Assembly: GCF_054482525.1 (NCBI RefSeq)
Contig: NZ_CM137006.1
Direction: 5' to 3' (one strand)
Length of the DNA: 64,000 nucleotides
Program-made: the position numbers
Part shown: piece after piece, positions 54,001 to 57,000 of the stretch
Layout of the letters: every line of letters starts with the position of its first letter
Numbering within the stretch: position 1 is the stretch's first letter

Positions 54001-57000
54001 GTTAAAGCCCTGGCAGAAATAACCGGTGACTTTGCCTTCATCCATCATGTTGAAATACTTGATGACGTCGTAGGTCTGGTCCCACTTAGGCAGCCAGTCG
54101 TAGCCCCAGTTGTTCTCTTTCTGCGCGGCATCGCCGTAGAAAGATTTCATCAGGCTAACGAAGAACTTCGGATAGTTGCTCCAGTAGTTCACCTGATCAG
54201 CCAGCGTCGCTTTCGGCGTGTTCGCTTCCAGATACGACTGCAAATCAACCTGTTTTTCTGACGGCAGCGTCAGATAACCCGGCAGGCTGGTTGAGAGCAG
54301 ACCTAAGTCGGTCAGGCCCTGAATGTTGGAGTGACCACGCAATGCGTTCACGCCGCCACCAGCCATACCCATGTTACCGAGCAGCAATTGGATCATCGCC
54401 ATGGTGCGGATGTTCTGCGCACCCACGGTGTGCTGCGTCCAGCCCAGCGCGTACAGGAAGGTGGTTGTGCGATCCGGTGCGCTGGTGGAGGCTAGCACTT
54501 CACACACTTTCAGGAAGTCGGCTTTTGGCGTACCGCAGATGTTTTCAACGACGTCCGGCGTGTAGCGGGAAACGTGCGCTTTCAGCAGGTTCCACACACA
54601 GCGCGGATGAGTCAGCGTGTCATCGCGTTTCGCATAGCCGTTTTCATCGAACTGATAGTTCCAGGACGACTTATCGTATTCACGTTTTTCAGCGTCGTAG
54701 CCGCTGAACAGACCGTCTTCGAAAGCAAAATCATCACGCACCAGCAGGCTGGCATTGGTGTAATGCTTAACGTATTCGGCATTGATTTTGTTGTTTTCGA
54801 TCAGGTAGCGCAAAACGCCAGACAGGAACGTAATGTCCGTACCGGAACGAATAGGTGCGTAAATATCCGCTACAGAAGCGGTACGCGTAAAACGGGGATC
54901 GACAACGATCAAGGTTGCATCGTTGTTGTTTTTCGCTTCCATCGCCCAGCGGAAACCGACGGGATGCGCTTCAGCAGCGTTACCGCCCATCACCATTACG
55001 ACGTTAGCGTTTTTGATATCCACCCAGTGGTTGGTCATCGCACCGCGACCAAATGTTGGAGCAAGACTTGCTACCGTTGGTCCGTGTCAGACGCGCGCCT
55101 GGTTGTCTACCGCCAGCATCCCGAGGGAGCGGGCAAATTTCTGGGTCAGCATCCCGGTTTCGTTGCTGGCACCGGAGGCACACAGCATACCGGTAGAAAG
55201 CCAACGGTTTACCGTTACGCCCTGCTCGTTCTTTTCAATAAAGTTAGCGTCACGGTCAGCTTTCATCAGCTTCGCAATACGGGAGAATGCTTCTTCCCAG
55301 CTAATGCGCTGCCATTTGTCAGAACCTGGCGCACGATATTCCGGGTAGCGCAGACGGTTTTCGCTGTTGACGTAATCCAGCAAACCGGCCCCTTTCGGGC
55401 ACAGCGCACCACGGCTTACCGGATGATCCGGGTCACCTTCAATGTGATAAATCGCTTCTCTGGCGTTTTTCGCGCCATCACCCAGGCTATACATCAATAG
55501 CCCGCAACCTACGGAACAGTATGTGCAGGTGTTACGGATCTCTTTCGCGCGTAATAATTTATAGTTTCGCGCCTGAGCCAGTGCTTGCTTCGGGGCAAAG
55601 CCCAATGCCGCTACTGTTGTTCCAGCCATACCGCCCGCGCAGATTTTAAAAAATTGTCTGCGACTGACGTCCATTGCTTTCCTCTTTTTTCAGGGGTATT
55701 ACTGCGCGAGGAAACTAACAGTAAAATTCTGAATCTTTTTGCGCGAAATCAAAAAGAACACGTGTTTGCCACAAAATAATCCGCCTGCGCAAATTGACCT
55801 ACCTCAATAGCGGTAGAAAAACGCACCACTGCCTGACAGGCCAGTTAAAAAAATGCTATAAAATTCAGCTTAATTTTTAACGGCAAGAGAGACAAAACAG
55901 CGAGCATGACACGACAAAAAGCAACGCTCATAGGGCTAATAGCGATCGTCCTGTGGAGCACGATGGTAGGATTGATTCGCGGTGTCAGTGAGGGGCTCGG
56001 CCCGGTCGGCGGCGCAGCTGCTATCTATTCATTAAGCGGGCTGCTGTTAATCTTCACGGTTGGATTTCCGCGTATTCGGCAGATCCCGAAAGGCTATTTA
56101 CTCGCCGGGTGTCTGTTATTCGTCAGCTATGAAATCTGTCTGGCGCTTTCCTTAGGATATGCGGCGACCCGTCATCAGGCGATTGAAGTGGGTATGGTGA
56201 ACTATCTGTGGCCCAGCCTGACAATTCTCTTTGCCATTCTGTTTAATGGTCAGAAAACCAACTGGCTGATTGTACCAGGATTATTATTAGCCCTGGTTGG
56301 CGTCTGCTGGGTGTTAGGCGGTGACAATGGGTTACATTATGATGAAATCATCAATAATATCACCACCAGCCCATTGAGTTATTTCCTGGCGTTTATTGGT
56401 GCGTTTATCTGGGCAGCCTATTGCACAGTAACGAATAAATACGCACGCGGATTTAACGGAATTACCGTTTTTGTCCTGCTAACGGGAGCAAGTCTGTGGG
56501 TTTACTATTTTCTCACGCCACAACCAGAAATGGTATTTAGCACGCCCGTCATGATTAAACTCATCTCTGCGGCATTTACCTTAGGATTTGCATATGCTGC
56601 ATGGAATGTCGGTATATTGCATGGCAACGTCACCATAATGGCGGTAGGTTCGTATTTTACGCCCGTCCTTTCCTCTGCGCTAGCAGCCGTGCTGCTCAGC
56701 GCCCCGCTGTCGTTCTCGTTCTGGCAAGGCGCGCTAATGGTCTGCGGCGGTTCCCTGCTCTGCTGGCTGGCGACACGTCGTGGCTAAAATAATTGTCGGG
56801 TCTACGGCCCGGCAGTTAATCAGATAAATTCCGACAATATAAAAAAATAAATTTCAAATACCAGTAGTTCACCTTATATTTCATTTCGACTTCGATCACA
56901 TATCGATAAATAATATTATTTCATCTATTTTTCTCATTGTGTTTAATCACCATTCCATTTTAAAAACAGTATGTCATTTATAAATGACGCCGTTTAAAAT

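Follow-up and report, generated by a model that had tools for sequence, protein, structure and literature searches.

The 64,000-nucleotide stretch of DNA analysed here, which we call the window, carries the Escherichia coli gene fdnG. Codon 196 of this gene is UGA, and it is almost certainly translated as selenocysteine, with a SECIS hairpin lying directly 3' of it. Neither Sec196 nor the SECIS is new: both are known from Berg et al. 1991, from the solved structure 1KQF, from Rfam and from RefSeq. The significance of the present analysis lies in annotation. Because ORF callers read UGA as a stop, they break fdnG into two pieces; it should be annotated as a single selenoprotein coding sequence with a translation exception at codon 196. 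A genuine recoding site recovered from raw sequence is a positive control, and it leaves the biology of selenocysteine insertion unchanged.

The TGA triplet lies at 55089..55087 on the minus strand. A mechanical list of open reading frames has two entries on this strand, 55087..55674 (195 aa) and 52627..55038 (803 aa), and the earlier note had read them as one gene split by an in-frame UGA. This reading holds. Translation from 55674 to 52627 gives one frame of 1016 codons in which the only stops are codon 196 and the terminal codon; RefSeq has a single CDS, and the profile TIGR01553 runs across the junction. Around the internal stop the protein reads MLAVDNQARV, then the stop itself, then HGPTVASLAPTFGRGAMT. 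The gene, its signature elements and its downstream neighbors are placed as follows.

52627..55674, minus strand: fdnG, encoding the alpha subunit of formate dehydrogenase-N; one CDS, 1015 residues with Sec196 counted
55645..55665, minus strand: Tat motif S-R-R-Q-F-F-K, FdnG codons 4-10, from the translation; its role in Tat export is putative
55087..55089, minus strand: UGA codon 196, almost certainly decoded as selenocysteine, in the motif U-H-G-P; aligns with X196 of 1kqf_A
51730..52614, minus strand: fdnH, iron-sulfur beta subunit (TIGR01582, 482.1 bits, cutoff 334.7; RefSeq annotation)
51084..51737, minus strand: fdnI, cytochrome b gamma subunit (NF007558, 486.9 bits, cutoff 339; RefSeq annotation)

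We take SRRQFFK to be a twin-arginine (Tat) export motif from general knowledge of periplasmic molybdoenzymes.

Several independent matches identify the gene as fdnG, the name that it had been given from the sequence alone. From 2582 to 64000 (61.4 kb) the window is colinear with E. coli PCN033 at 99.984% identity, and RefSeq annotates in that strain one fdnG CDS of 3048 nt that spans the UGA and is followed by fdnH and fdnI. The window has the same fdnGHI operon order, with the beta (TIGR01582) and gamma (NF007558) ORFs downstream of fdnG and both above cutoff. When the two ORFs are joined and selenocysteine is entered as cysteine, TIGR01553 scores 1620.9 bits (cutoff 814.2) in one stretch over residues 2-1014; only the joined protein gives a full-length match. 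Of 5426 complete E. coli genomes, 5425 match a 601-nt query around the UGA, usually at two places per genome, corresponding to the paralogues fdnG and fdoG. The best matches of this query are annotated 'fdnG: formate dehydrogenase-N subunit alpha'.

What residue occupies position 196 in homologous proteins? For comparison with the PDB, cysteine was placed at this position. Residues 1-301 of FdnG are identical to 1kqf_A, whose title is 'formate dehydrogenase, nitrate-inducible, major subunit' and which has a non-standard residue, X, at 196. The position also aligns with X in the Desulfovibrio FdhA chains named 'selenocysteine-containing' and with C in the engineered variant 9qm0. The earlier note had called for selenocysteine or cysteine at this site in homologues, and X/Sec or C is what the alignments contain; a residue that is neither, which would have spoken against recoding, does not appear in them. 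In E. coli itself, the homologous codon is UGA in fdoG (codon 196) and in fdhF (codon 140), both in the context ARV-U-HGP. The U-H-G-P of FdnG is a version of the U-H-x-P motif given in Table 1 of PMC13188914. For published evidence of selenocysteine in fdnG, PMC13188914 cites Berg et al. 1991.

We turn now to the RNA. SECIS nucleotides are numbered with the U of the UGA as nt 1, and the parts of the element are as follows.

55034..55092, minus strand: SECIS element, 59 nt, the full match to Rfam SECIS_3 (RF01989)
55058..55075, minus strand: upper stem-loop, nt 15-32, GGUAGCAAGUCUUGCUCC, the probable SelB-binding part
55077..55082, minus strand: 5' arm of the lower stem, GACCAA, nt 8-13, paired with 55047..55052 in minimum-free-energy folds
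55047..55052, minus strand: 3' arm of the lower stem, UUGGUC, nt 38-43, in minimum-free-energy folds; contains GGUC

The match of the element to a curated family is decisive. SECIS_3 at 55034..55092 is the sole Rfam match across the 64-kb window; it scores 84.3 bits, where the gathering score is 63 (E = 1.4e-18 for the 64-kb window), and extends over model positions 1-59 of 59. The UGA sits at model positions 4-6, and the element lies within the ORF, its frame continuous. We also considered the fdhF-type family, SECIS_2 (RF01988), on which the fdnG element scores 28.8 bits (threshold 70), compared with the 84.3 bits on SECIS_3; the element belongs to SECIS_3.

Folding agrees with the family match. 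The RNA string from which the earlier note had proposed a SECIS hairpin corresponds exactly to 55089..55046, and a stem-loop does form there, with a geometry like that of fdhF. The 50 nt after the UGA fold at -14.6 kcal/mol, with z = -1.03, and 25 of 200 shuffled sequences fold as well. Stability alone would thus not identify a SECIS here. The delimited 37-nt hairpin folds at -12 kcal/mol (z = -3.09; 2 of 200 shuffles are as stable). Since the energy of the 50-nt segment does not discriminate, we rely on the covariance model and on covariation.

The upper stem-loop is the functional part of a SECIS, and the determinants of SelB binding lie in a 17-nt minimal SECIS 11 nt from the UGA: a bulged U17 and the loop bases G23 and U24 (PMC8659212). 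In fdnG, nt 15-32 fold as ((.(((((...))))))) at -4.5 kcal/mol (z = -2.06). The pairs are G15-C32, G16-C31, A18-U30, G19-C29, C20-G28 and A21-U27, together with A22-U26; U17 (55073) is bulged, and the apical loop holds G23 (55067), U24 (55066) and C25. The rules established for fdhF hold here as well: the upper stem-loop begins 11 nt past the UGA, U17 is unpaired, and G23 and U24 are in the loop. The element also falls within the bSECIS model of Zhang and Gladyshev (per PMC13188914), which allows a loop of 3-9 nt, an upper stem of 4-16 bp and a distance of 16-37 nt from UGA to loop, with a G within the first two loop positions. The fdnG loop is 3 nt (GUC), or 5 nt (AGUCU) if A22-U26 is open; the upper stem has 6-7 bp, the G is at loop position 1 or 2, and the UGA-to-loop distance is 18-19 nt.

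An asymmetric internal loop separates the upper stem from the lower one. Of the lower stem, the earlier note had correctly seen the pairing: GACCAA (55082..55077) pairs with UUGGUC (55052..55047) in the minimum-free-energy fold. It had also pointed to GGUC as a sign of a SECIS. The tetranucleotide is there (nt 40-43, 55050..55047), but it is in the 3' arm of the lower stem rather than in the apical loop. We therefore reject it as the counterpart of the apical-loop GGUC of fdhF; the loop of fdnG reads A-G23-U24-C-U.

The exact register of the lower stem varies among homologues. The GACCAA/UUGGUC register, a continuous 6 bp, is perfect in the window as it is in other enterobacterial sequences, but most other taxa do not keep its second pair, which is broken in 43 of the 59. 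The Rfam register is shifted by 1 nt, with a bulged C, and fits most taxa, among them most Pseudomonas and Burkholderia-type sequences. Counted on the alignment, neither register is clearly better, each being imperfect in part, and across the 59 distinct homologues among the matches listed the lower helix is 83-87% paired, without clear compensatory support. The span over which the enterobacterial sequences and the Rfam consensus differ in register is 55044..55083 on the minus strand. It is possible, though we consider it doubtful, that the lower stem of Enterobacterales fdnG and fdoG pairs 1 nt off the family consensus, as GACCAA/UUGGUC without the bulged C. The lower stem contributes only modestly to SECIS function, and unpairing it costs only about 25% of read-through (PMC8659212). 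The ambiguity in register accordingly leaves the conclusion about the SECIS unaffected.

Comparison across species shows that the upper helix has been maintained as RNA. A search with the motif ARV[U/C]HGP[T/S]VA, in which each species was represented by one genome, found at least 120 loci; among the matches listed, the codon at the motif is TGA in 109 of 120 and TGY (Cys) in 11 of 120. At least 20 loci have exactly the 60 nt that follow from the UGA in the window fdnG, for example that of Yersinia aldovae (locus L012). Sixty FdnG-type sequences from many genera, 59 of them distinct, were taken from the matches listed and aligned without gaps. Over the 59 distinct sequences, 99.5% of the cells in the upper helix are paired. 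Compensatory changes occur at two of the seven upper-helix pairs, with double changes in 26 cells, a level that none of 500 shuffles reaches. Alignment columns 21-33 have GC in 47 sequences, AU in 8 and GU in 4; columns 24-30 have AU in 41, CG in 15 and GC in 3. All four columns (21, 33, 24 and 30) are third-codon positions, in Val, Ala, Ala and Leu codons, so that the compensation is between synonymous sites. If the 3' partners are slid by 1-3 columns, pairing drops from 92% to 26-49%.

G23 and U24 (columns 26-27) are invariant, and the search pattern had left both free. The wobble bases G18 and U27 in alignment numbering (U27 is U24 counted from the UGA) are invariant as well, and they too were unconstrained by the search. 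The invariance of U17 in the alignment is uninformative because the search pattern fixed the GTN codon.

Homologues that have a cysteine codon at this site provide a control. Among the matches listed, none of the 11 TGY loci has a SECIS match at Rfam gathering thresholds; in the same scan, 8 of 9 TGA loci do.

One TGA homologue, in Haemophilus haemolyticus (locus L021, 3067..3126), has no Rfam SECIS match at the gathering score. Examined by eye, its nt 15-31 (UGUAGCAGGUCUGCUCA) have the fdhF geometry, with a bulged U17 and the loop GGUC, and contain the compensatory pairs U15-A31 and A18-U29. Possibly this is a SECIS that has diverged too far for the curated models to detect. The Y. aldovae locus mentioned above carries an Rfam FdoG1_thermometer (RF02778, 228 bits) at 1920..2111, in the 5' UTR of its FdnG/FdoG-type gene. 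No FdoG1_thermometer was detected upstream of fdnG in the Rfam scan of the 64-kb window.

Could the UGA simply be a stop? The mechanical ORF caller does list two ORFs, and on this account the locus would hold a pseudogene or two genes, a 195-aa fragment and an 803-aa fragment restarting at the ATG at 55038. Yet the same arrangement occurs in 5425 of 5426 E. coli genomes, annotated as one CDS. Between the two ORFs lie 48 nt that stay in frame, contain no stop and match the solved protein exactly; the TIGR01553 alignment runs unbroken over the junction, and the UGA is followed by a curated SECIS. Termination at codon 196 is vanishingly improbable, and the pseudogene or two-gene reading is ruled out by 1KQF, in which one continuous chain passes through residue 196. 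A more subtle objection grants read-through and denies it a SelB-dependent mechanism: a near-cognate tRNA-Trp or a Cys-tRNA would decode the UGA and give a Trp196 or Cys196 enzyme. Low-level UGA read-through does exist in E. coli, but this is a general occurrence to which nothing in our data points, and residue 196 of the solved protein is non-standard. Both the SECIS and the selB/selC machinery are present, and the evidence of Berg et al. 1991 for selenocysteine in fdnG, as cited in PMC13188914, also stands against this explanation, to which we assign practically no weight.

It might also be argued that what is conserved after the UGA is only the protein motif HGPTVASLAPTFGRGAMT, the hairpin being incidental and without function at the RNA level. 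The encoded peptide is indeed highly conserved and lies at the active site, and the folding z-score of the 50-nt segment is unremarkable. Covariation, though, is seen between synonymous third-codon positions (columns 21-33 and 24-30). Two wobble bases that the search did not constrain, G18 and U27, never vary, the paralogues are identical over 71 nt where elsewhere 60% of their codons agree, and homologues with a Cys codon are without a SECIS. An incidental hairpin is therefore highly improbable, if marginally less so than the two explanations above. We conclude that codon 196 is recoded as selenocysteine and that the hairpin after it is a SECIS.

The cellular machinery for recoding is general in this species: of 5426 complete E. 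coli genomes, 5425 have selB and 5424 have selC. Neither gene lies inside the 64-kb window. By analogy with the established E. coli pathway (PMC13188914), insertion at codon 196 would proceed as follows. The mRNA just 3' of the UGA would fold into the SECIS hairpin, whose upper stem-loop would be bound by SelB together with GTP and Sec-tRNA(Sec). The approaching ribosome would melt the lower helix and place the UGA in the A site, where the tethered SelB would deliver Sec-tRNA(Sec) in competition with release factor 2. The product, Sec196, would serve as the molybdenum ligand of the periplasmic, Tat-exported FdnG subunit. For the fdnG of the window, we infer SelB binding and selenium-dependent read-through of the UGA from this literature.

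The window contains other features that deserve mention. A relative of fdnG that does without selenium, ydeP, lies in the same 64 kb at 10170..12449 (plus strand) and encodes a molybdopterin oxidoreductase of the FdhF/YdeP family. No internal UGA was flagged in ydeP, and the Rfam scan of the window gave no SECIS match there. At 57046..58146 (plus strand), adjoining yddG, is an intact porin gene of 366 aa that PGAP names ompC; its position presumably corresponds to that of the yddL pseudogene of K-12. Genes for leucine-rich-repeat proteins, one of them a truncated pseudogene, lie between the porin gene and narU at about 59600..61900. Another block, 39573..46339, lies between osmC and ddpF and encodes, by the PCN033 annotation, 3-hydroxybutyrate dehydrogenase, a GntP permease, 3-hydroxyacyl-CoA dehydrogenase, acetyl-CoA acetyltransferase, CoA transferase A and B, and a LysR regulator. 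We take osmC and ddpF to be adjacent in K-12. If so, the block would be a strain-variable island for the use of ketone bodies or short-chain acids.

At its left end (1..2611) the window holds the 3' part of a filamentous, inovirus-like prophage, with a gene for a secretin-N (pIV-like) protein at 230..1588 (plus strand), the end of a Zot-domain gene and small ORFs. At 2584..2611 the prophage adjoins a dif site that is exact over all 28 bp of the E. coli sequence, and it looks like an inovirus that integrates by way of XerCD/dif. PCN033 lacks it, since the colinearity of that strain with the window starts at 2582, and coverage of window positions 1-2700 reaches 80% or more in just 5 of 5426 complete E. 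coli genomes. In APEC E19057 the prophage is present in full (replication protein II/X, major coat, attachment protein, Zot and secretin) between hipA and the fimbrial cluster.

How does the fdnG element compare with known selenocysteine insertion elements? The experimentally dissected prototype is the fdhF SECIS (RF01988), and we extracted and folded the E. coli K-12 fdhF element in the same way as that of fdnG. The two have in common the UGA-CAC-GG context and an upper stem that starts at nt 15; in both, U17 bulges out, the loop contains G23 and U24, and the lower stem closes back towards the UGA. They differ in detail. The upper helix of fdnG is one base pair longer, making the upper stem-loop 18 nt instead of 17 nt, and the U18-A29 pair of fdhF is replaced by A18-U30. 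The loop is AGUC in fdnG and GGUC in fdhF. Because the fdnG loop reads as it does, only the essential G23 and U24 are common to the two loops. The 3' side of the fdnG element, unlike that of fdhF, also has a 5-nt internal loop (AACAU).

A second E. coli counterpart is fdoG of K-12, which encodes the paralogous formate dehydrogenase-O in an operon of its own, fdoGHI. The 60 nt starting from its UGA are identical to those of the window fdnG, whereas the rest of the gene has 74.6% nucleotide and 77% amino-acid identity. The longest identical run is 71 nt (CDS nt 583-653, spanning the UGA at 586-588) and the next longest 35 nt; in a codon-aware alignment, the two genes use identical codons at 60% of the positions where they have the same residue. 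In the window this run occupies 55022..55092 on the minus strand, from 3 nt before the UGA to about 20 nt beyond the SECIS hairpin. Selection on the SECIS explains most of the 71-nt identity, and chance, gene conversion or an extra constraint could account for the 3' extension. We regard it as possible but rather unlikely that the roughly 20 nt past the hairpin reflect gene conversion or an additional constraint at the RNA level, and not SECIS selection alone.

Outside this region there are presumably a few strain-level amino-acid differences between the FdnG of the window and that of K-12. The E. coli K-12 system itself (Berg et al. 1991; 1KQF; RF01989) has the same gene, the same element and the same fdnGHI order.
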